51,465 nucleotides of DNA from IMG/VR virus record IMGVR_UViG_2872152978_000009, one strand, 5' to 3'. The translations under genes and the position numbers were made by a program. This document shows positions 1,422 through 51,465 of the stretch, in pieces. The DNA is from a virus. Taxonomy: Duplodnaviria > Heunggongvirae > Uroviricota > Caudoviricetes. The notes beneath the pieces are model-generated. The model saw only the letters and a program-made list of their open reading frames with translations. It did no database searches and was not told the DNA's origin. Positions within the stretch are counted from its first letter, which is position 1. The number at the start of each line of letters is the position of its first letter.

Positions 1422-3896
1422 TTAAAAATCAGCCTGATTCGGGATCAGTTTTTGCCAGATAACTGAAACGTATTTTGCCTGGTAACGGGCGTCATCAAGT
1501 GCATTATGGCGCTCACCTTCGAATGGAATAGCCGTTCTGGCATCGAAGTCTATGGCTTTCCCCAGCTCAACGATTGTGCGTACATCGCGATCGTTGTAGT
1601 AACGCCACGGGCAGGGGATCCCCTGCCGTTCGTATGAACGGCGCAAAATCGTGTTGTCGAAGTTGGCTCCATTTCCCCAGACCTGAACAAAAAATTCACC
1701 GGAGTTTTCGTCGATAAATTCCCGCAATTGTAACAGTGCATCATCTAACGGGATTTCATCGGTCATAATGGCAGATTGCGCTTCGCGTGATTGCTTAAGC
1801 CACCATTTAATGGTGTCCCGATCAATGACCCCGCCAGCAGTTTCCAGATCGATAGTCTTACTAAATTCCGGTCCCATATCTCCGGTTTGCGGATCGAAAA
1901 ATATTGCACCTATTGAGATGATCGGGGCATCAGGATTTTTTCCCATGGTTTCAAGGTCGATCATTAGATGGTCACACGTCCTGCTGGTGGATGTGATTTC
2001 TTGATGACCGTTCACCTTAATTGAGTGATCTGCCGTCTCGCCAGTTTCATTATCGCTATCGTGATGCTGATTGCCGTCAGTGTTCTCCTTGTGTGGATGT
2101 TCAGCGCCTTCCATTTCCTCCGGATCATCTTCCTGAACTTCAACCTGATACTCTTCATCGAATGTTTCCTGGTATGTTGCGTCGCCCATCACCGCGCCAC
2201 AATCAGGGCAGTTGCCGCCGCCGGTCTGACCGCAGGCGGTGCAGACTTTTTCCACTTCCTGTTGCGCCACTGGTTCAGGCTGTTTCGTTTCTGGCTCGTT
2301 TTGTAACGCATTTGGGCTGTTTTGTTCCGCTTTCTGGCCGTTCTGTTCCGTTTCTTGCTGGTTCTGATTCACTGAATCGCGGGTTTCAATCCCCTTCACC
2401 CATTTCGGATCATTCGGGTCGCTAATCCCTGCAACAAATTCACCACGTGATACAGCAAGCAAATTATTGGCGTCAGGCTGGCTGATATTGGCTGCCTGCA
2501 TAATTTTGTTTACTTCGTCAGCGGTAACTTTTACCGGCTCTGGTTGTGCGATCGTGTCAGATGCACCAGTATTTTGTTGTGAACCTGAGTACGTGCCGTT
2601 TTTACGTGCGAAGTATTCCTCTTTTGTGATTTCCGTAGCTCCCAGGGCCAGTGCTTTTTCCAGACCAGAAAGTTTGTTTGCGCGACCGTATTTTTCGCCG
2701 TCCTTATCGGTGAAAAGGAAGTAGAACGGTCCCTCACGCTCTACAGATGGTTCGTCTTCCACTTCGCATTCGGTTTTTTCGTTGTCCGGCATTGCCGTTT
2801 CCACTGCATCAGTTTCTGGTACTGGTGACGGGAGAGTACCAGCTGTGCCCTGATTTGTTCCTTCGTCATCTTCAAACACGCCCTTGGTAGTCAGGTATTC
2901 AGTGATGTATTTGTTCAGTGCTACGGGATCTTTGTGAATGTCGATCGGACGCTCACGGACAAGGCCAAAAATAGTCTGACGGTCGTAGCGAACGGCATCG
3001 GGTTGTTTGCGCATTGATGCGGAAATGCGCTTCCAGTCTTCGCGATCTTTGTCGATAACTTCATTTTTTGCCCAGCGATGGATGCTGCCGTCAATGTTTC
3101 CGGTATCAATATCGCCAGGCCAGAGAGCGTAGGCCAGTTCTTCATCCAGCGTTTTCCATGTCTGCTTGTATTCGCGACAAATGGCGGCAGTGACTGGGTT
3201 GATTTTTCCTGCTGAGTTTTCAGTGTTCTGTTGATTGACTCTGGCGCTGGCGAGATCAACAACAGACGTGTATTTTCCAGTCTCTTTGCGCTCTGCGTCC
3301 TGCCGTTTTTTCCAGTTACGTAATTCAGCCTGAATTTCGGGCCATTTGGCACCCGGATTACATTTGTGTTTAACCCATCCGATAGCGAACAGTTTGCGTT
3401 CCGGATACATAGCGTTAATTTCAGGCGTTTTCATCAGTGCTTCAACGATATGCCCGTCAAAGGTAGCAACGTCTTCCTGCAGTAATTCCTGCGCGTCAAT
3501 CGCCATATCAACGGTGATGTTTTCACATGTACCGAACTTAACCAGGACCGCGTTCTGTACTTCAAGGGACAGCTTGTCAAAATTGACGTTCATCGGATCG
3601 GATTCTGGTTCGACTGGAATAAAGGAAGCGGATTCCTCATCCCAGCGGTTTTCCTGCATATATTCAGCATCCCAGGAATCGAGGGCAGGGCGGGGTATAC
3701 CGGGTTTATCCTCGCAGACAAGAAATTTATAAGCGCAGTCCTGAGCAGCCGGATAATGTTCCAGGAATTGCCAGTGAAATTTTGCGCGGGCGCGACGTTC
3801 ATCACCGGCTTCAATGGCAGTGGCTACAGCGACGGCACCTTCTTCCTTTATTGCCTGTTCGTCCGGAATGGCGGCGCAAATAAAGACTTTACTCAT
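1422..3896 (-). CDS. Large prophage exonuclease, RecE-like architecture with C-terminal DnaQ/DEDDh-type 3'-5' exonuclease domain
   Basis: 824-aa ORF; acidic low-complexity centre, Cys4 motif CTACGQTGGGNCPDCG, C-terminal DLETMG...ALDDA exonuclease-type motifs; no partner annealase ORF adjacent. Confidence 0.75.
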   Translation of the reverse strand: MSKVFICAAIPDEQAIKEEGAVAVATAIEAGDERRARAKFHWQFLEHYPAAQDCAYKFLVCEDKPGIPRPALDSWDAEYMQENRWDEESASFIPVEPESDPMNVNFDKLSLEVQNAVLVKFGTCENITVDMAIDAQELLQEDVATFDGHIVEALMKTPEINAMYPERKLFAIGWVKHKCNPGAKWPEIQAELRNWKKRQDAERKETGKYTSVVDLASARVNQQNTENSAGKINPVTAAICREYKQTWKTLDEELAYALWPGDIDTGNIDGSIHRWAKNEVIDKDREDWKRISASMRKQPDAVRYDRQTIFGLVRERPIDIHKDPVALNKYITEYLTTKGVFEDDEGTNQGTAGTLPSPVPETDAVETAMPDNEKTECEVEDEPSVEREGPFYFLFTDKDGEKYGRANKLSGLEKALALGATEITKEEYFARKNGTYSGSQQNTGASDTIAQPEPVKVTADEVNKIMQAANISQPDANNLLAVSRGEFVAGISDPNDPKWVKGIETRDSVNQNQQETEQNGQKAEQNSPNALQNEPETKQPEPVAQQEVEKVCTACGQTGGGNCPDCGAVMGDATYQETFDEEYQVEVQEDDPEEMEGAEHPHKENTDGNQHHDSDNETGETADHSIKVNGHQEITSTSRTCDHLMIDLETMGKNPDAPIISIGAIFFDPQTGDMGPEFSKTIDLETAGGVIDRDTIKWWLKQSREAQSAIMTDEIPLDDALLQLREFIDENSGEFFVQVWGNGANFDNTILRRSYERQGIPCPWRYYNDRDVRTIVELGKAIDFDARTAIPFEGERHNALDDARYQAKYVSVIWQKLIPNQADF

Positions 3897-3991
3897 TTTG
3901 TTTTAACCTCATTACAGATTTCAGGGTGAACGAATCCCTGCCATTGCTGGCATTTTTAATCCGTTGGTATGGCGTTAATATGGCTGGCGGG

Positions 3992-4180
3992 TTATCCAGC
4001 CGGTATTTCGTTATTCAGGTTCAGCGATACTTTTTTTAACGGGAGGCATTCACCGGGGATTTTTTGTTCGTCCCTTACCTGAATGCAGGATGACTTACTG
4101 TCATAAATTCCGGTAATCACATTTTGTGGCTCACCCGTTATAAGAAAAACGGTCATCACCAGTGCAAATGCTGAAGTCAC
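3992..4180 (-). CDS. Hypothetical small protein with hydrophobic N-terminus
   Basis: 62-aa ORF with GTG start overlapping the stop of the upstream ORF (GTGA); N-terminal MTSAFALVMTVFLITG is signal/TM-like. Confidence 0.35.
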   Translation of the reverse strand: MTSAFALVMTVFLITGEPQNVITGIYDSKSSCIQVRDEQKIPGECLPLKKVSLNLNNEIPAG

Positions 4181-4365
4181 TGCTGTTCTCCGATAATACC
4201 AAGTTCAAGAAGGGCAATTCTGGAAAGTATGGAATTATCATTGAGAAGATAAGGTTCATATTTTCTCATCTTAATGGCATCTTCCGTAAACTCCCGGTTA
4301 CTGAGCAGAACACCAATATCAAAACAACCTTCAGACGTATTAACGTTTGGTAATAACGTTTCCAT
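4177..4365 (-). CDS. Hypothetical small protein
   Basis: ATG at 4365 preceded by GAGGA ribosome-binding site on the minus strand; 62 aa; the track ORF extends to 4470 from an alternative start. Confidence 0.4.
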   Translation of the reverse strand: METLLPNVNTSEGCFDIGVLLSNREFTEDAIKMRKYEPYLLNDNSILSRIALLELGIIGEQQ

Positions 4366-4897
4366 TATCGCGTCCTCAACAATGAATTTTGTGATGCGGT
4401 GCCTGGTGCCTCCAGGTGACGTTAACCAGTTAACAATTAACGCCGGATACAGAGAATCCACCCATAACACTGTTTTTGGTTTTAACTGTTCCGCGTGCGC
4501 TCAGCCGCATTCACCACATCACAAAATTCACTTTAAAAAGGGCGGCAGAGCAGTCACGGAGTAAAACTGATACCGCCAAACGTCACCAGAAAATTGATAA
4601 CAGAGGGCGTTGCAGCGGGGTTGTCACTTAAGCGTATGGTCAACCTGACAACCCGGTGTCCTCAGCGGGGGAAGGAATAACCCCGCCATACTTACCGCCG
4701 CGCCATTTCGCGGATTGCCACAACCGGAAGCGCACGATCGAATTAAATTTAACGACGACCTATACAGAGAGACTAACTTCTCCGGGCGCTTTCGTGTTAT
4801 GCCCTGACTTTTCAGGGATATATCCTTTTCAGTAAACTGTCAGTGCCGGATTCTTATCCGTGTCCGGCGCACGCACTCTACCTCACCTGTGAATAAA

Positions 4898-5284
4898 TTA
4901 ATGATTAATTGATATTTTGTTGTTTGATTCAACTTTCCCATCGGATGTGTGATGCTTTAAATCACAGGAATTAATACTGCTTGCTGTAAAATGATTTTCA
5001 AGGGGTTCTATTCGAATCCCTTTCTTTTTCATTAACAAGCCAAACCCCTTATCAATGATGTCCATTAGATCCAGGAAGTATTTTTCATGTAAATCCTGGT
5101 TATCAGAGAGCTGCTTCTCTTCGTACAGCCCGATAAAGGCTCGGCGTACGTTACCGGATATATTGTCGATGGTTTCTTTTTCTACGGTACTCAGGTCAAG
5201 AGTCGCCAGTTGAGAGCGAACCACATTCGATGCCATTTCCTGGAATGGTACTGGTAAATCTTTAAATTCCATCGTCAACCTCAT
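4898..5284 (-). CDS. Hypothetical protein co-oriented with the repressor gene
   Basis: 128-aa ORF; internal ATG at 5272 has a better GAGG ribosome-binding site; no recognisable family. Confidence 0.5.
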   Translation of the reverse strand: MRLTMEFKDLPVPFQEMASNVVRSQLATLDLSTVEKETIDNISGNVRRAFIGLYEEKQLSDNQDLHEKYFLDLMDIIDKGFGLLMKKKGIRIEPLENHFTASSINSCDLKHHTSDGKVESNNKISINH

Positions 5285-5624
5285 CAGTCGGAGTTTCTTG
5301 CTAACCAGCGACGCGCGCCAGCTTCGGTTTTAAACGTTTTGCTTTTGGTATACGTCATGGCGGTGAATGTGCCGTCCTGGTTGGGGAGCACACCACATAC
5401 CAGAGATTCGCTGTTGCCAAGATCGATAGTATCCATGCTGACCTCATTACCCTTAACGCCGGGTAGCGGAACTGTTTGCTGAGAACACCGTGCGGTGTCT
5501 TGATGGGTGGTAATTTAGTTTTCCCATGAATATTGGTCAAGCATTTTTAATGAGAAAACTCAATATTTAATGCAAAATAAAGCCAATACATTGAAATGTA
5601 AGGCTTTAAAATTTGTGAAGGGGG

Positions 5625-6032
5625 TTACTGATGTTTGTTACGTTTGCGAGCTTCTAGTAGCTCGGTGAATAGGCGATTAAAATTCTCAACGCGGGCACGG
5701 AGTTCGCTGATTTGTGCTTGCTGCTCTGATTTTGGAAGTGCGCGATACAATCGCAACATCTCCAACTCATCTTCCGATAAGTCTAAGGCGCTGTTGAGTG
5801 CTACTGGTGGATCTGGTGTTTTATCCTCGTCACCAAACAGTATCCAAGTTGGTGAACATTGCAATACCTCAGCCAGGCGATGCAAATTTTGCCCGCGCGG
5901 GGCTGTATGGTCGCTTTCCCATAGTGAAATTGATGAGCCAGATACGCCAGCGGCTTTGCTTAAATCGTTTTGACTTAAACCAACCTGTTTGCGTCTTTCT
6001 CTAATTCGTTGACCTAAAGTTTTCTCGTTCAT
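5625..6032 (-). CDS. dicA: DicA-like HTH (XRE-family) prophage repressor
   Basis: 135 aa; N-terminal HTH GQRIRERRKQVGLSQNDLSKAAGVSGSSISLWE and the LQCSPTWILFGDEDK segment recalled from E. coli DicA; divergent from a Cro-like gene. Confidence 0.85.
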   Translation of the reverse strand: MNEKTLGQRIRERRKQVGLSQNDLSKAAGVSGSSISLWESDHTAPRGQNLHRLAEVLQCSPTWILFGDEDKTPDPPVALNSALDLSEDELEMLRLYRALPKSEQQAQISELRARVENFNRLFTELLEARKRNKHQ

Positions 6033-6337: not shown

Positions 6338-6872
6338 ACAGGTTTGTGAGGCTCTGGATGCCTGGGTATGTCGACCAGGAATGACACAGGAGCAAGCGAC
6401 GATATTAATCACGGAAGCATTCTGGGCTCTGAAAGAACGCCCGAACATCGATGTTCAACGCGTCACGTTTAATGATGGCGAGGTTGATCAACGGGCGCTG
6501 GGCGTTAACCGGGTGAAGATATTCGAACGCTGGAAAGCTATCGACACCAGGGATAAGCGGAAAAAATTCACGGCGCTGATTCCGGCAATTATGGAGGCTA
6601 TCCGAATTAGTGATTTCAGGTTGTATCGTGAGATCAGTGATGGAAAAAGCATTACGTACATGATCGCCGGATTAAACAAAGAATATGGCGATGTGGTGGA
6701 GTCCGGGCTGCTTTTTGCGGATCCAGCTGTTGTGGAACGTGAGACTGACGAGCTTATAGAAAAAGCTATTGCTTTCAAGCATGCGTATCGTCAGCAATAT
6801 CAATATTACTTTGCAGATAAACAAATGTCTGCCAGGGGTTTGTATGAGTATCGATGCACTACGATGGGCTAA
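6321..6872 (+). CDS. Hypothetical early-region protein (CII position, possibly YdaT-like)
   Basis: 183-aa ORF overlapping the Cro-like stop; position between Cro-like and replication genes. Confidence 0.5.
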   Translation: MKITPEQVCEALDAWVCRPGMTQEQATILITEAFWALKERPNIDVQRVTFNDGEVDQRALGVNRVKIFERWKAIDTRDKRKKFTALIPAIMEAIRISDFRLYREISDGKSITYMIAGLNKEYGDVVESGLLFADPAVVERETDELIEKAIAFKHAYRQQYQYYFADKQMSARGLYEYRCTTMG

Positions 6873-7884
6873 AAAGGTGAAAACCGGCAGTTCATCCAGT
6901 AAGTCTGTATTGACCTGGCTTGCTGATATGTGCGGTGCCGATTTGTGTGCATACCCGTCTGTATCTGCACTGGCAGAAGTAACGGAACTAAACAAAAAGA
7001 CTGTGCAGGACAGCTTACGACACCTGATGGAGATTGGGTTAATTGTTGATACCGGTGAGAGAAAAGGCAGAACAAAGCAAATTGTGGTGTACCGACTTAT
7101 CGGTGTAGAAGAAAGTGTTGCCGAGCCTGAATACACCCAAAAACGGGAGTCTTTAAAGGTGGGTAAAATTGGTGCTGTTAATAAAAACAGTACCGAAAAT
7201 GGTTATGTTTCAGCACAAAACAGACCCAAAAACGGAACTCTTAGCTGCATGGAAAATAACCAAAGACACCCAAATTTTCCATCAAAGACACCCAAAAACG
7301 GATCACGGAACCCAAAGGAACCCAAAGATCTAAACCCCACACATAACGCACGCGAGAGTGCTCCGACCAGTGAGCAGGAAGTTTTGTCGTTACAGGCAGC
7401 ACCCCTTGTATTCCTGGATGGCCTGAGCGAACCCATCGGAAAATTTCCGATGACCGATAGCTGGTATCCGTCACGGGATTTTCGACGACGGGCTGCGTTG
7501 TGGGGGATGGCTTTGCCGGAGACAGAATTTACACCTGCTGAACTTGCCGCCTTCCGGGACTACTGGGCAGCGGAGGGGAAAGTGTTTACGCAGATTCAGT
7601 GGGAGCAGAAATTCGCCCGTCACGTAAATCACGTCAGGGCGCAGGTTAAACCAGTCAGCAAGGGGGTAAACCATGCAGCAGCACCAGGTGGCACCGCATC
7701 ACGGGCAGTTCAGGAAATTCGGGCAGCACGTGAGCAGTGGGAACGTGAAAACGGATTTATCAGCGACGGAAACGGTCTGGAAGCTGTGGGAACTCATGGG
7801 GGAGGTTTATTCGAACCGCTGGACCCAGAAGAACGGGGCCGCACCTTCGAAGCTCTGGATTGCACAGATTGGCGCGATGACTGA
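6844..7884 (+). CDS. Replication initiation protein (O-like; N-terminal winged helix, C-terminal DnaT-like domain)
   Basis: ATG at 6844 overlapping the upstream stop; N-terminal DNA-binding-like region, C-terminal region resembling primosomal DnaT-type domains; followed by a P-like gene. Confidence 0.7.
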   Translation: MSIDALRWAKKVKTGSSSSKSVLTWLADMCGADLCAYPSVSALAEVTELNKKTVQDSLRHLMEIGLIVDTGERKGRTKQIVVYRLIGVEESVAEPEYTQKRESLKVGKIGAVNKNSTENGYVSAQNRPKNGTLSCMENNQRHPNFPSKTPKNGSRNPKEPKDLNPTHNARESAPTSEQEVLSLQAAPLVFLDGLSEPIGKFPMTDSWYPSRDFRRRAALWGMALPETEFTPAELAAFRDYWAAEGKVFTQIQWEQKFARHVNHVRAQVKPVSKGVNHAAAPGGTASRAVQEIRAAREQWERENGFISDGNGLEAVGTHGGGLFEPLDPEERGRTFEALDCTDWRDD

Positions 7885-8338
7885 GCAGCAAATCCGACAG
7901 GTCTGCCGCCAGTGCATGGACCGCTGCCGGGCGGGTGAAACATGGCCTCCGGACCTGGCTGAGTTTGTGGCGCTGATTTCAGAAAGCGGGGCCAATCCAT
8001 TTGGCCTGACGGTGGATGCTGTGATGGAGGAGTACCGCCGCTGGCGTGATGAGTCCTGGCGATATGACGGAAGCGACAAATATCCGTGGCCTCAGCCTGT
8101 GCTGTACCACATCTGCCTCGAAATGCGTACCAGAGGGATTGAGCGCCAGATGACGCAGGGTGAGTTAAAACGACTTGCGGAACGGCAACTGACGAAATGG
8201 GCAAAGCATGTTGGTAACGGGATGAGTGTTCCGCCAGTGCGACGACAACTGGAAGGGGCGAAACACCCGCAAGGGCCAACGCCAATTGAACGGCTGAAAC
8301 AGGAATACGAACGCCGGAAGGCAGCTGGTTTTATTTGA
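7796..8338 (+). CDS. Replication protein P-like (helicase loader)
   Basis: Collinear similarity to lambda P as recalled (YPW...L motif region, C-terminal basic tail); start uncertain, frame is open from 7673. Confidence 0.6.
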   Translation: MGEVYSNRWTQKNGAAPSKLWIAQIGAMTEQQIRQVCRQCMDRCRAGETWPPDLAEFVALISESGANPFGLTVDAVMEEYRRWRDESWRYDGSDKYPWPQPVLYHICLEMRTRGIERQMTQGELKRLAERQLTKWAKHVGNGMSVPPVRRQLEGAKHPQGPTPIERLKQEYERRKAAGFI

Positions 8339-17509: not shown

Positions 17510-17545
17510 TTGTTGATTTTTCCCGAATCTGTGGTAAATTTGCTC
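17510..17545 (+). promoter_or_regulatory. Candidate late promoter PR' (extended -10 TGGTAAATT)
   Basis: TTGATT ... TGGTAAATT with about 16-bp spacer, 50-80 bp upstream of a strong terminator, as for lambdoid PR'/qut. Confidence 0.35.
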
Positions 17546-17589
17546 TAACGATGGGCGTTTTATGCCTGACGTTAGAAGATTTTTTACAC

Positions 17590-17611
17590 CCCGCCGCCTG
17601 GCGGGTTTTTT
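17590..17611 (+). terminator. Intrinsic terminator (tR'-like)
   Basis: CCCGCC-GCCT-GGCGGG followed by TTTTTT. Confidence 0.6.
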
Positions 17612-17733
17612 ATGACTGAAATCGCGTCAGTACAGTAAACGCGCTGGTGGCGGTGAATACCTGTCTTTCAGCTTGCTGGCTTTTTCGACAAGAGTTATTG
17701 GTGTGTCACGTTAACCGGAAAAGGGAAAAAGAC

Positions 17734-17931
17734 ATGCTAAAACAGCAGGATATGACAGAAACCGCCAGAGTGGTGTTTAATGAATTAAGCGTTAACGACC
17801 CGGCGACAGTCGGGGAGATTGCGCAGAATACTTACCTTTCACGCGAACGCTGCCAGTTAATACTGACCCAGCTGGTTATGGCGGGTCTGGCAGACTATCA
17901 GTTCGGTTGTTACAGACGCCTTCCGCAGTGA
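17734..17931 (+). CDS. Hypothetical small winged-helix-like protein
   Basis: 65-aa ORF from ATG at 17734. Confidence 0.45.
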   Translation: MLKQQDMTETARVVFNELSVNDPATVGEIAQNTYLSRERCQLILTQLVMAGLADYQFGCYRRLPQ

Positions 17932-18081
17932 AGGCTTTTTTATTTGTGGTAAATGGGCGGCTGGTGGGTGTTAGGGGCACCCACCAGCCATCTGCTCATG
18001 CGTTGGGTTCACAAGCAAACCTCAGGCCCACTGCTTTGCGCAAAAGCAGAATGAGCCTATCAGAGACAGGCTTAATGATCC

Positions 18082-46572: not shown

Positions 46573-49548
46573 ATGACAGTAAAGATTTCTGGTGTACTGA
46601 AAGATGGTGCAGGTAAGCCGATACAAAACTGCACCATTCAGCTAAAGGCCAGGCGCAACAGCACCACGGTGGTGGTGAACACAGTGGCCTCAGAAAATCC
46701 GGATGAAGCCGGGCGTTATACAATGGACGTCGAGTATGGTCAGTACAGCGTCAGTCTGTTGGTGGAGGGATTCCCGCCGTCACACGCCGGGATTATCACC
46801 GTATATGAGGACTCAAAGCCGGGCACACTGAATGATTTCCTCGGTGCAATGACGGAGGATGATGTCCGGCCAGAGGCACTGAGCCGTTTTGAACTGATGG
46901 TGGAAGAGGTGGCGCGTAACGCGTCCGCAGTGGCACAGAACACGGCAGCCGCGAAGAAGTCAGCCAGCGATGCCCGCACATCAGCCCGTGAGGCGGCAAC
47001 CCATGCGACTGATGCTGCAGGCTCAGCACGCGCAGCCAGCACGTCAGCCGGACAGGCCGCGTCGTCGGCTCAGTCAGCGTCTTCCAGCGCAGGAGCGGCA
47101 TCAACAAAGGCCAGTGAAGCATCGAAAAGTGCTGCTGCTGCAGAGTCCTCAAAAAGCGCGGCAGCTACCAGTGCCAGTGCCGCGAAAACGTCAGAAACGA
47201 ATGCGGCAGCGTCACAACAATCAGCAGCCACTTCTGCATCCACCGCGACCACGAAAGCGTCAGAAGCAGCCACTTCAGCACGGGATGCGTCGGCTTCAAA
47301 AGAGGCGGCAAAATCATCAGAAACGAACGCAGCCTCGAGCGCCAGCAGCGCAGCTTCCTCGGCAACGGCGGCAGCAAATTCTGCGAAGGCGGCAAAAACG
47401 TCCGAGACGAACGCCAGGTCTTCTGAAACGGCAGCGGGACAGAGCGCCTCAGCTGCGGCAGACTCAAAAACAGCGGCTGCATTATCTGCCAGTGCCGCGT
47501 CAACAAGTGCCGGGCAGGCCTCAGCCAGTGCCACCGCCGCCGGAAAATCGGCAGAAAGTGCTGCATCGTCTGCTTCAACAGCCACAACGAAGGCTGGCGA
47601 AGCCGCTGTACTGGCCAGCGCAGCAGCGAGGTCTGCTTCCGCAGCGAAGACATCCGAGACGAACGCGAAAGCGTCGGAAACCAGCGCAGAATCCTCAAAA
47701 ACGGCTGCCGCATCGTCCGCCAGTTCGGCGGCGTCATCGGCATCATCTGCGTCTGCTTCAAAAGATGAGGCGACCAGACAGGCGTCAGCAGCAAAGGGCA
47801 GCGCCACGACGGCATCCACGAAGGCGACAGAGGCAGCTGGCAGTGCGACGGCGGCAGCTCAGAGCAAAAGTACGGCGGAATCCGCGGCAACGCGCGCTGA
47901 GACAGCGGCAAAACGGGCAGAGGATATTGCATCCGCCGTGGCGCTTGAGGATGCGAGCACGACGAAAAAGGGGATAGTACAGCTCAGCAGTGCGACTAAC
48001 AGCACTTCCGAGTCACTGGCGGCAACGCCAAAAGCCGTTAAGGCCGCGTATGAGCTGGCTAACGGGAAATACACCGCACAGGATGCAACGACAGCACAGA
48101 AAGGGATAGTTCAGCTTAGCAACGCGACCAACAGCACATCTGAAATGCTGGCGGCAACGCCAAAGTCGGTAAAGGCAGCCTATGACCTTGCTAACGGGAA
48201 ATATACTGCTCAGGACGCTACGACAGCACAAAAAGGAATTGTCCAGCTCAGTAGTGCAACCAACAGCGCATCTGAAACGCTTGCCGCGACACCGAAAGCA
48301 GTGAAAGCAGCTAATGATAATGCGAATGGTCGGGTACCTTCTGCCCGTAAGGTGAATGGTAAGGCGCTTTCAGCGGATATAACACTGACGCCGAAAGATA
48401 TTGGTACGCTTAACTCAACAACAATGTCATTCAGCGGTGGTGCTGGTTGGTTCAAATTAGCAACGGTAACCATGCCACAGGCGAGTTCTGTTGTTTCAAT
48501 TACGTTGATTGGTGGTGCGGGATTTAACGTGGGGTCACCTCAACAGGCAGGTATATCTGAACTTGTTTTGCGTGCAGGTAATGGTAATCCGAAGGGGATT
48601 ACTGGTGCTTTATGGCAGCGCACATCGACAGGGTTTACAAATTTTGCCTGGGTCAATACATCTGGTGATACTTACGATATTTACGTTGCAATCGGAAATT
48701 ATGCAACTGGTGTAAATATTCAATGGGATTATACCAGTAATGCCAGCGTGACGATTCATACGTCACCAGCATATTCTGCTAATAAGCCGGAAGGGTTAAC
48801 GGACGGTACAGTTTATGCACTCTATACGCCATCAGAGCAGTTTTATCCGCCTGGCGCACCAATCCCGTGGCCATCAGATACCGTTCCGTCTGGCTATGCC
48901 CTGATGCAGGGGCAGACTTTTGACAAATCTGCATACCCGAAACTTGCAGCCGCTTATCCGTCAGGCGTGATCCCTGATATGCGTGGCTGGACGATTAAGG
49001 GCAAACCCGCCAGTGGTCGTGCCGTATTGTCTCAGGAACAGGACGGCATTAAATCGCACACCCACAGCGCCAGCGCATCCAGTACGGATTTGGGGACGAA
49101 AAACACATCGTCGTTTGATTACGGAACCAAATCCACGAATAACACCGGGGCGCATACGCACAGTCTGAGTGGCTCTACGGGGTCTGCCGGTGATCATACT
49201 CATGGTAATGGTATTCGTTGGCCAGGAGGCGGCGGTTCTGCGTTAGCATTTTATGATGGCGGTGGGTTCACTTATGTCCAGGATTCACAGTATCAAGTAA
49301 GCCCGGGGACTTCTTCCCGTAGATCGTATTATCAACGTATTCAGACACAGTCAGCAGGTGCTCATACCCACTCGCTGTCTGGTACTGCAGCAAGTTCTGG
49401 CGCACATGCACATACTGTAGGTATTGGTGCGCATACGCACTCCGTTGCGATTGGTTCACATGGACACACCATCACCGTTAACGCTGCTGGTAACGCGGAA
49501 AACACCGTCAAAAACATCGCATTTAACTATATTGTGAGGCTTGCATAA
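46573..49548 (+). CDS. stf: Side tail fibre protein Stf
   Basis: N-terminus [26 protein letters not shown] like lambda Stf; long Ala/Ser-rich region; C-terminal GAHTHS repeats. Confidence 0.85.
47944..48330 (+). repeat. Three tandem copies of an approximately 129-bp coding repeat inside stf
   Basis: Peptide unit [16 protein letters not shown](N/S)ATNS(T/A)SE.LAATPK(A/S)VKAA..LANGKY repeated three times. Confidence 0.6.
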
Positions 49549-50132
49549 TGGCATTCAGAATGAGTGAACAAGCACGGACCATAAAAATTTATAATCTGCT
49601 GGCCGGAACTAATGAATTTATTGGTGAAGGTGACGCATATATTCCGCCTCATACAGGTCTGCCAGCAAACAGTACCGATATTGCACCACCAGATATTCCT
49701 GCTGGCTTTGTGGCTGTTTTCAACAGTGATGAGGCATCGTGGCATCTCGTTGAAGACCATCGGGGTAAAACGGTTTATGACGTAGCGTCAGGGGACGAGT
49801 TATTTATTTCTGAACTCGGTCCGTTACCGGAAAATGTTACCTGGTTATCGCCGGAAGGGGAGTTTCAGAAGTGGAACGGCACTGCCTGGGTGAAGGATAC
49901 GGAAGCAGAAAAAATGTTCCGGATCCGGGAGGCGGAAGAAACAAAAAACAACCTGATGCAGGTAGCCAGTGAGCATATTGCGCCGCTTCAGGATGCTGCA
50001 GATCTGGAAATTGCAACGGAGGAAGAAACCTCATTGCTGGAAGCCTGGAAAAAGTATCGGGTGTTGCTGAACCGTGTTGATACATCAACTGCACCTGATA
50101 TTGAGTGGCCTACGAACCCTGTCAGGGAGTAA
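49548..50132 (+). CDS. tfa: Tail fibre assembly protein Tfa
   Basis: 194-aa nearly collinear with lambda Tfa. Confidence 0.9.
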
Positions 50133-50145
50133 TCATTGGGATTAT

Positions 50146-50195
50146 GCCGCAGCACGTCTTAAGCAAGAACGTGCTGCGGTTGGATGCTATTTTTT
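50146..50195. terminator. Hairpin plus T-run after tfa (candidate bidirectional terminator)
   Basis: 11-bp inverted repeat GCCGCAGCACGT ... ACGTGCTGCGG followed by TTTTTT. Confidence 0.4.
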
Positions 50196-50855
50196 CCCTG
50201 AAGCGGAAAACATTACTACAGTACCTTGAACCTTGGTTTTAACATTCTCGAAATGCTCTGAGAGTATATGTGTTAAGCCTTCTTCGGAATCTTTTGTGTT
50301 TGAAAAGATGCCTTTCTGATTGTAAATGCGCATCAGTTTTTGACCGAAGCTATTGTGCACAACTCCATCGCCAAGAATTGTGGCTCCGTATAGAGTTCCA
50401 TCGTCAGTTAAGGCCTGCGACGCATTGCGTATTACACAGCTTTTTGTAGATATATTTCCAGGCAGGCAGTGAAGAAGGTAAAACATGGAAATGGAATCAA
50501 ATTGACCATGTAACGCCGCGGGATAAGGTTCAAAAACATCATGGCTAATTTTATGTTTAATTTTTGATTCCCCAGCCCTTGTAGATGCCGCGTTCAGGCT
50601 AGCTTCGTTCAAATCCATTAAAGATATCAGACTACTCTCAGGTACGTGAGTAAGGTAAAACCCAGTTCCAACACCAATATCCAGATGGTTGTTACCTACA
50701 TGTTCCAGAAAGTGTGGAAGAAGGTGTTCCTTTGTAGGACATCCCCATGCAAGCCGATTTGATACTCCCAAAACCCACCAGTCATAAAGCTTTAGGGTAA
50801 GTGGTGTGTAAATTTTAGCCCCATCATCTGTGTTTTTTTTCATTGATTTCACCAT
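50187..50855 (-). CDS. Class I SAM-dependent methyltransferase (non-DNA type), low-GC cargo gene
   Basis: 222-aa; motif I LDIGVGTGFY, acidic post-I residue (LMDLNE), motif LLHCL; opposite strand to the tail operon. Confidence 0.7.
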   Translation of the reverse strand: MVKSMKKNTDDGAKIYTPLTLKLYDWWVLGVSNRLAWGCPTKEHLLPHFLEHVGNNHLDIGVGTGFYLTHVPESSLISLMDLNEASLNAASTRAGESKIKHKISHDVFEPYPAALHGQFDSISMFYLLHCLPGNISTKSCVIRNASQALTDDGTLYGATILGDGVVHNSFGQKLMRIYNQKGIFSNTKDSEEGLTHILSEHFENVKTKVQGTVVMFSASGKK

Positions 50856-50911
50856 GTTATAGTTTTATTTGTGAATTAAATCAATTATGGCGATGAATTA
50901 CAAGGGGTTAA

Positions 50912-51232
50912 ATGCTGCCGCAGCATAGCGATATTGAAATAGCCTGGTATGCTTCGATACAGCAGGAGCCGAATGGCTGGAAGACCGCCACCACACAGTT
51001 CTACATCCAGGAATTCAGTGAGTATATTGCGCCACTGCAGGATGCTGTAGATCTGGAAATCGCAACGGAGGAAGAAAGATCGTTGCTGGAGGCATGGAAT
51101 AAATATCGGGTATTGTTGAATCGTGTTGATACATCAACTGCACCGATATTGAGTGGCCTGCAAATCCTGTCAGGGAGTAATCATTGGGATTATGCCGCAG
51201 ACACGTCGTATGCAGGAACGTGCTGCGGTTAG
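50912..51232 (+). pseudogene. Second, partial tail-fibre-assembly (tfa-like) gene with a 1-bp frameshift near the 3' end
   Basis: Encodes [42 protein letters not shown] matching the tfa C-terminus, then diverges where one base is missing relative to tfa. Confidence 0.55.
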
Positions 51233-51294
51233 TTTGTGAGCTTTCGATAGTGGTTGTTATTTTTGCCCTTATTTGTTCCGGAGGCCATGGTTCA

Positions 51295-51465
51295 ATGGTC
51301 CGTCTGCCCCCTGTGGTGATGTCAGCAAAATCAGCCACTGCGCGAACCACAATAGCCCGGGAAGATGCTGAAGATCACCAGGTAAAGCTGTCAGCGCAGA
51401 AACTGGAAGAACTGCTCGCATCAATGGTTAAGGATGAGGTTGATCGCAATGATGGGATTTATTGA
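51295..51465 (+). CDS. Small hypothetical protein (56 aa)
   Basis: ATG at 51295 within track ORF 51184-51465; stop at window end. Confidence 0.35.
   Translation: MVRLPPVVMSAKSATARTTIAREDAEDHQVKLSAQKLEELLASMVKDEVDRNDGIY

Follow-up and report, generated by a model that had tools for sequence, protein, structure and literature searches.

The window, that is, the whole stretch of DNA analysed here (51,465 nucleotides (nt); IMG/VR virus record IMGVR_UViG_2872152978_000009), matches a complete lambda-like prophage that lies in the 3' end of ompW, beside yciEFG-trp. The locus of interest is a methyltransferase gene between two pieces of the tail fibre assembly gene tfa, and it makes up the accessory region at the far right end of the prophage. 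The gene order runs from int-xis through the Q region to the lysis, terminase, head, and tail genes, followed by J, lom, stf, tfa, the methyltransferase gene, a partial tfa (tfa'), a DUF4376 remnant, and attR. The methyltransferase gene (50187..50855, minus strand) encodes a class I S-adenosylmethionine (SAM)-dependent enzyme, and Pfam, PHROG, and synteny identify it as orthologous to K-12 ybcY and place it in PHROG 2132. Its GC content is 0.41, compared to 0.52 in the window and 0.48 in tfa. The intact tfa (49548..50132, plus strand; 194 amino acids (aa)) matches Caudo_TAP (PF02413) over profile positions 1-130 of 131 (E = 1.3e-44, 151.9 bits) and is thus a member of that family; its counterpart in strain UTI89 is WP_000885580.1. 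On the other side of the methyltransferase gene lies a truncated and frameshifted tfa-like open reading frame (ORF; 50912..51232, plus strand), which is the equivalent of K-12 tfaX. This ORF reaches only Caudo_TAP positions 73-122 and falls outside the family, and it matches PHROG 2341 over positions 1-79 of 88 (E = 9.5e-55). Intact tfaX versions in phages have 88-101 aa, and RefSeq calls the equivalent of the window ORF a pseudogene.

The methyltransferase gene is bracketed by direct repeats of about 226 base pairs (bp), at 49956-50181 and 51005-51230, which BLAST recovers as a single 227-column match of 88% identity. A 227-nt match at this identity inside 3 kb far exceeds chance. The repeat search divides it into three collinear blocks, namely 49956-50095 against 51005-51144 (86% identity), 50097-50152 against 51145-51200 (95%), and 50153-50181 against 51202-51230 (90%). 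Two 1-base insertions or deletions separate the copies in pairwise alignment. A T is absent from the right copy between 51144 and 51145, and the tfa-like ORF is therefore frameshifted; an extra A is present in the right copy at 51201, within the hairpin described below. A first-pass annotation, made from the sequence alone, had given the repeats an identity of 85-90%, which holds, and had placed them at 49975-50190 and 51021-51236, which is 6-19 nt off. It had also read the left repeat as the true 3' end of tfa. This is borne out, as the left copy (plus strand; repeat families D1, D2, and D4, and BLAST) comprises the last ~177 nt of the intact tfa and a 49-nt tail with a hairpin. The right repeat (plus strand) does belong to a truncated, frameshifted tfa-like gene, as proposed, but it is not simply an alternative tfa. 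Its part 51005-~51136 is identical in K-12, ev243, and O157 and is borne by the cassette, while ~51145-51230 corresponds to the tfa end of relatives that lack the cassette.

Both repeats end in a hairpin, in agreement with the same annotation. The left hairpin (50146..50180) lies between the convergent tfa and methyltransferase genes, and the stop codon of the latter starts 6 nt past the end of the left repeat. It has 15 pairs and one bulge, with a predicted folding energy of -28.5 kcal/mol on the plus strand (z = -4.05) and -25.4 kcal/mol on the minus strand (z = -4.5). It may act as a terminator in both directions or stabilise 3' ends. In the consensus terminator scan, the left hairpin goes uncalled because the T-run begins 12 nt beyond the stem. 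The right hairpin (about 51194..51229) is a degenerate copy with the extra A at 51201 and changes in the loop (-24.1 kcal/mol, z = -2.5), and the scan makes a terminator-like call at 51211-51227 with a T-rich tail. As a dispersed repeat, the hairpin has no further occurrence in the window.

Translation of the methyltransferase probably starts at ATG 50843 (218 aa) and not at ATG 50855 (222 aa), because the Enterobacter DNA alignment, the homologue alignment, the PHROG profile, and the Shine-Dalgarno sequence agree. All homologues begin at the equivalent of ATG 50843, the PHROG 2132 profile covers residues 5-222 of the 222-aa translation, and a GGTGA at 50853-50849 lies 5 nt upstream of ATG 50843. 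ATG 50855 is not conserved in Enterobacter and adjoins a candidate -10 hexamer, TATAAC. In the 5' region of the gene (50856..50911, minus strand), the sequence and a promoter scan give two candidate promoters. Candidate A is TTGATT (50884-50879) with a spacer of 17 nt and TATAAC (50861-50856), and candidate B is TTAACC (50911-50906) with a spacer of 16 nt and CATAAT (50889-50884). The stretch 50216-50905 has 69% DNA identity to the locus of the chromosomal orthologue in Enterobacter, with promoter and Shine-Dalgarno sequence included. The conserved stretch holds a TTGATT-17-T(A/G)T(A/T)AC block and the ribosome-binding site and start GGTGAAAT(C/T)AATG. Since the promoter and ribosome-binding block are conserved with Enterobacter, the gene appears to have been captured along with its own expression signals. 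In PMC3946193, the ybcY-tfaX spacer of K-12 is listed with TTGATT-17-TATAAC as a site of the RpoD holoenzyme in genomic SELEX (systematic evolution of ligands by exponential enrichment), and it counts among the H-NS targets as well, which is in line with a partly silenced foreign gene rich in AT.

The protein passes the Pfam cut-offs of Methyltransf_12 (E = 4.6e-09), Methyltransf_23, Methyltransf_25, and Methyltransf_11. It matches PHROG 2132, to which PHROG assigns no function, over profile positions 1-218 of 218 (E = 1.5e-156), and the exact protein is WP_134807497.1, recorded from Shigella dysenteriae. A GxGxG motif I, an acidic residue at the end of strand 2, and a seven-stranded alpha/beta fold place it in class I. 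The first-pass reading of a low-GC (41%), minus-strand class I SAM methyltransferase between the repeats is thus confirmed. Motif I (DIGVGTG, residues 59-65) and D81 are invariant across sets of 32 and 52 homologues, and about 60 columns are invariant among the 32 Enterobacterales homologues. The family-specific invariants Y24, H57, H129, and D189, together with a near-invariant C130, are kept at 31-50% identity. An exhaustive profile search returns 1779 clusters (50% identity) at E <= 1e-3 and 428 at E <= 1e-30. The sequences indicate purifying selection on the family, with a ratio of nonsynonymous to synonymous substitution rates (dN/dS) of ~0.12 against Enterobacter, where dS is saturated.

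Orphan DNA methylases are frequent in phages, and the enzyme could in principle be one of them, or an RNA methylase, acting against restriction or tuning translation. The sequence argues against such a nucleic-acid methyltransferase at several points. The 222-aa translation has no PP dipeptide, and a DNA-methylase catalytic motif is therefore excluded; no (D/N/S)PP(Y/F/W), PCQ/ENV, or C5 motif is found, which agrees with the initial remark that DNA-methylase motifs are absent. With 218 aa, the protein is too short for a target-recognition domain. Pfam and PADLOC give no DNA methyltransferase match, and no DNA or RNA methyltransferase model of Pfam, NCBIfam, or PADLOC scores above threshold. 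Moreover, another gene of the prophage, near Q and tRNA genes, already encodes a DNA methyltransferase. A nucleic-acid target is accordingly very improbable.

The AlphaFold2 model (mean predicted local distance difference test score, pLDDT, 90.3) was compared with known structures, as the first-pass annotation had proposed for finding the substrate class. The best matches are all methyltransferases of small molecules or lipids (PmtA, JHAMT, NodS, SgvM, BelI, RebM, and Coq5), but they are non-specific within that class. The top Foldseek match is the bacterial phosphatidylethanolamine N-methyltransferase 8ys9 (E = 1.4e-11, template modelling (TM) score 0.61-0.65), and PDB profile matches are JHAMT (E = 5e-06) and UbiG. 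Against the NCBIfam equivalogs UbiE/MenG, RquA, BioC, and NodS, the window protein reaches at best 17.7 bits compared to cut-offs of 175-390, and the curated PmtA model gives 15.7 bits compared to a cut-off of 390, which places the protein outside PmtA. Likewise, 51 distant family members give only generic sub-threshold NCBIfam matches (BioC, UbiE, CpaM, and NodS; E >= 5e-09). The N-terminal extensions of distant relatives carry a recognisable domain only in one RCC1 fusion. The best-supported reading of sequence and model is a self-sufficient methyltransferase for a small molecule or lipid, from an uncharacterised family; PmtA-like, quinone, and toxin substrates are leads only.

The 8ys9 match, the weak NCBIfam matches to PmtA and RquA, and the constant neighbourhood of stf/tfa and of envelope genes of the lom/ompT type could also suggest that the enzyme serves the phage itself. 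It would then modify the fibre, Tfa, or a receptor lipid or lipopolysaccharide, and thereby affect host range or superinfection exclusion. However, orthologues of 55-68% identity stand alone in chromosomes, away from any phage genes, and the gene stands on the strand opposite to the late operon with what appears to be its own promoter. The PmtA score is far below its cut-off, and no PADLOC defence model is matched beyond mad2 (E = 0.0095, 12.8 bits), which does not amount to membership of a defence family. A role directed at the tail fibre or envelope is thus unlikely, and only a small chance is allowed for it. Homologues in Salmonella, Enterobacter, Yersinia, Aeromonas, and Erwinia are solitary genes. 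Conserved neighbours were considered as a clue to function and set aside, as the contexts in five genera are all different and all monocistronic. A recurring pair of methyltransferase and esterase was also rejected, as the alpha/beta hydrolase of E. coli prophages is unrelated to the Erwinia carboxylesterase (BLASTP E = 0.81; Pfam). The name ybcY occurs in 11 papers, none of them about its function; those consulted contribute a mention of a deletion mutant, an entry in a SELEX table, a large deletion, and maps of the locus.

In the DLP12 prophage of K-12, the order is tfaD, ybcY, tfaX, appY, and ompT. The window shares the order and orientation of tfaD, ybcY, and tfaX with 96.7% DNA identity over 49694-51157, and it also shares the promoter block, the hairpin after tfaD, and the junction between the methyltransferase gene and tfaX. 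In contrast to the intact window ORF, K-12 ybcY is an inactive pseudogene. A 2-bp deletion beside an A-run takes the TG of the conserved start ATG (positions 5610-5775 of the K-12 locus compared; window 50841-50843), which the RefSeq note describes merely as 'frameshifted'. The window further differs from DLP12 in that its upstream tfa is complete and lies within a complete ompW prophage. Its tfaX runs into a full tfa 3' end with hairpin, so that the repeat is ~226 bp long, compared to ~150 bp in K-12.

The limits of homology to other carriers are sharp. BLAST extends the similarity over window 50012-51136 in ev243, 50141-51136 in O157:H7 FRIK2455, and 49694-51157 in K-12. To the left of the unit, ev243 has different tail genes. 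FRIK2455 carries a Mn-catalase and a stress module resembling yciE/yciF/yciG exactly between the tfa stop and the hairpin (positions 2290-4503 of the locus compared), which constitutes a second cargo at the same site. Right neighbours in other carriers are appY, an IS66 element, or an alpha/beta hydrolase with ompT. The first 130 nt of the right tfa piece accompany the methyltransferase gene in all contexts examined, and only the last ~85 nt of this piece and the hairpin match the resident tfa end. Because the homology limits are sharp and the neighbours outside them differ, the travelling unit comprises, as the alignments delimit it, the tfa 3' end, the hairpin, the methyltransferase gene, the promoter, and an internal tfa fragment of ~130 nt.

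Prophages without the cassette were sought with a synthetic query, in which tfa 49548-49955 was joined to the right flank 51231-51465. In 19 complete E. coli genomes, the two halves lie 227 bp apart, compared to 1276 bp in the window, and the whole span is exactly 870 bp. This corresponds to the flanks and one repeat copy, with no methyltransferase gene. The flanks of these empty sites are 96.4-99.7% identical to the window, and the three sites that were opened belong to this ompW prophage, in which stf and tfa are followed by the DUF4376 remnant and attR. The first-pass annotation had held that a repeat-bounded presence/absence polymorphism would mark a cargo cassette, and this is what the genomes show, with 19 cassette-less genomes compared to 1126 in which tfa, the methyltransferase gene, and tfa' are joined to the right flank of the window. 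The methyltransferase is thus not a core gene fixed at this position, because empty ompW prophages exist.

Repeat alleles were read in three of the 19 empty-site genomes, and the single repeat copy is a hybrid in all three. It is left-type through 50096 and right-type from 50112, with the switch in between. The left part keeps the T that holds tfa in frame, and from 50112 on the copy is right-type at every distinguishing site, hairpin included; over the whole repeat, ~30 sites tell the two copies apart. In NMBU-W13E19 (flanks 99.7% identical), right-type sites at 50045 and 50051 are embedded in the left-type part and resemble a conversion patch. The right repeat of the window is identical to tfaX of ev243, O157, and K-12 up to ~51136 and then to the empty-site allele (51136-51160). 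The switch interval 50096-50112 coincides with the end of cassette homology to other phages, which lies at 51136-51160 in right-copy coordinates. These alleles suggest two routes. Either an empty prophage gained the cassette when the cassette tfaX recombined with the tfa already there, or a crossover between the direct copies produced the empty forms; both would be homologous recombination in the tfa arms. As a separate observation, cassette-less NMBU-W13E19 has genes of the rha and ash families between the DUF4376 remnant and attR (positions 4997-5826 of the locus compared), which is further turnover of the right-end accessory region.

In a survey at a threshold of at least 98% DNA identity, the methyltransferase segment 50187-50900 is found in 3836 of 5426 complete E. 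coli genomes (71%), with 1-4 copies each and ~4900 copies in total. The ompW prophage itself is carried by UTI89, S88, APEC O1, NU14, and many other strains. The methyltransferase is also present in 15 phage records and is carried by inducible or viable phages. PhiR26_1, the host of which is recorded as K-12 MG1655, has the order J, lom, stf, tfa, 'YbcY', a small Tfa, a hydrolase, and an omptin, and 'YbcY' is the existing GenBank label there. The early description of the gene as an unusual lambdoid cargo is therefore not upheld; it is ybcY of DLP12, which 71% of complete E. coli genomes carry and which GenBank already labels YbcY. Phage Kati has a DNA invertase gene after tfa, and ~1 kb past the invertase comes the methyltransferase gene (positions 6767-8030 of the locus compared). 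The Kati cargo may thus adjoin a switchable tail-fibre segment.

The same locus could be a relic. The right tfa fragment would be the leftover of an older tail-fibre/tfa module that was overwritten by an incoming stf-tfa host-range module, the methyltransferase gene would be a neutral passenger, and the repeats would have no ongoing role. The state of the neighbours is in line with this account. tfaX is truncated and frameshifted in the window and a pseudogene in K-12 and UTI89, a decayed DUF4376 tail-fibre-like remnant comes next, K-12 ybcY is inactivated, and the near-identical E. coli alleles do not allow selection within the species to be shown. On the contrary, the junction of methyltransferase gene and tfaX recurs at 98-99% identity beside unrelated neighbours in O157, ev243, K-12, PhiR26_1, and Kati, which argues that the unit moved repeatedly. 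The empty sites have the repeats as their exact limits and hold a hybrid copy, and a large majority of the 6589 cluster members keep an intact ORF, in a family with dN/dS 0.12. The relic account is consequently doubtful.

The preferred reading, to which a probability of roughly 0.7 is given, is that the locus is the ybcY-tfaX accessory (moron) module of a lambda-like ompW prophage, portable through its tfa arms and encoding a small-molecule or lipid methyltransferase. DLP12 (ybcY/tfaX) and PHROG 2132 already include this element, which is ordinary in kind. Its history would begin with the capture of a stand-alone methyltransferase gene, with promoter and ribosome-binding site, from an enterobacterial chromosome. 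The captured gene would have been placed immediately past the terminator hairpin of tfa, in convergent orientation to the late operon of the phage. The core would move with two tfa-derived arms, one consisting of the tfa 3' end and hairpin, and the other of the ~130-nt internal tfa fragment (tfaX). Almost every E. coli has several lambdoid prophages with related tfa genes, and the arms could for this reason act as portable homology. Crossovers in the arms, by RecA or a phage recombinase, would shift the cassette to another prophage, and a crossover between the two direct copies would remove it. In the window, the right-hand crossover would have occurred at about 51136-51160, so that the tfa end and hairpin already in the prophage remained as the right repeat. 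Sequence and model make an active, soluble enzyme that methylates a small molecule or lipid, and not DNA, the most likely product, and H-NS would limit how much of it the lysogen makes.

Several points weigh against parts of this reading. The canonical U-tract is absent from the left hairpin on both strands. Insertion and deletion of the cassette both fit for each lineage, and the crossover interval shared by the three empty sites could reflect a single old event. The K-12 copy is dead, and the gene is therefore dispensable in the laboratory. Production and activity of the protein are themselves predicted from the sequence and the structural model. Moreover, E. coli alleles differ by just 1-3 nt, which is too few to reveal selection in the prophage, and the high prevalence could thus be due to hitch-hiking with tail-fibre modules.

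It is conceivable, though rather improbable, that YbcY serves lysogenic conversion by methylating one specific target, which could be the head-group of a membrane lipid, a quinone, or a toxin or antibiotic from outside the cell, and that host benefit or phage protection drives its spread. If true, this would explain a near-invariant allele in ~70% of E. coli, often in several prophages at once. As a sequence feature, the locus matters little, as it is annotated and very common, and its mosaicism is ordinary lambdoid recombination. Nevertheless, the cassette is a clean natural case of duplicated structural-gene fragments that would serve as homology arms for cargo exchange, with filled, empty, and further-expanded states all present in public genomes. 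YbcY is among the most widespread accessory genes of E. coli prophages, those of uropathogenic and avian pathogenic E. coli and O157 included. Since it is conserved, solitary, and has its own predicted promoter, it is tractable for functional study.

The remaining features of the region lie on both sides of this cassette. Directly upstream of tfa is the side tail fibre gene stf (46567..49548, plus strand; 993 aa; ORF list), labelled 'prophage tail fiber N-terminal domain-containing protein' by RefSeq in UTI89. In the Stf protein, a very long low-complexity segment rich in Ala and Ser is accompanied by a KGIVQLS.ATNS.SE.LAATPK.VKAA motif in three tandem copies and, near the C-terminus, by repeated GAHTHS motifs (direct-repeat family D5, 49147-49440). 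The right flank (51231..51465, plus strand) is a decayed tail-fibre-like (DUF4376) remnant toward attR, and RefSeq calls it a pseudogene in UTI89 and B-1109. An ORF at 51184-51465 matches PHROG 1141 (tail fibre) and PHROG 7703, and attR is a 126-bp ompW fragment just past the window end. RefSeq has a 45-aa ORF at window 50105-50242 (plus strand), which covers the tfa stop, the hairpin, and the 3' end of the methyltransferase gene. It is named 'hypothetical protein' (WP_001309429.1), or 'nucleocapsid protein' in K-12 records, and looks like an annotation artefact. In strain B-1109, the Prokaryotic Genome Annotation Pipeline reports an 81-nt 'DinI family protein' fragment at window ~50930-51010 (minus strand), in the interval from the methyltransferase promoter to the tfa-like repeat; this was rejected, as the translations show no resemblance. 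In the UTI89 prophage, a separate DNA methyltransferase gene followed by three tRNA genes (Ile, Arg, and Arg) lies downstream of the antiterminator gene (positions 17530-18878 of the locus compared).

When compared to characterised enzymes, the window protein has merely 11-21% identity to methyltransferases of the UbiE, BioC, NodS, JHAMT, and PmtA types. The invariants Y24, H57, H129, C130, and D189 and a KGIFSN block of its family are explained by no characterised family compared. At the level of the locus, the cassette resembles the morons described for lambdoid phages (Juhala et al. 2000 and Cumby et al. 2012, both cited in bioRxiv 10.1101/2024.10.15.618418), such as lom, bor, and cargo downstream of tail-fibre genes. 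It is likewise a single gene of atypical GC with its own promoter-like sites and a flanking hairpin, situated between the late operon and attR, and prophages that are otherwise almost identical may have or lack it. Absence at the same position in close relatives, a defining trait of morons, is found in the 19 cassette-less ompW prophages. For the trait of an own promoter and terminator, the locus has promoter-like hexamers conserved with the chromosomal orthologue and a hairpin that departs from the canonical form in its U-tract, with the GC contrast of 0.41 vs 0.52. In function, ybcY stands apart from bor, lom, and sodC, the roles of which are known. The ybcY cassette further differs from such morons in that it is bounded by duplicated pieces of the adjacent structural gene, which would provide the homology for its transfer and loss.

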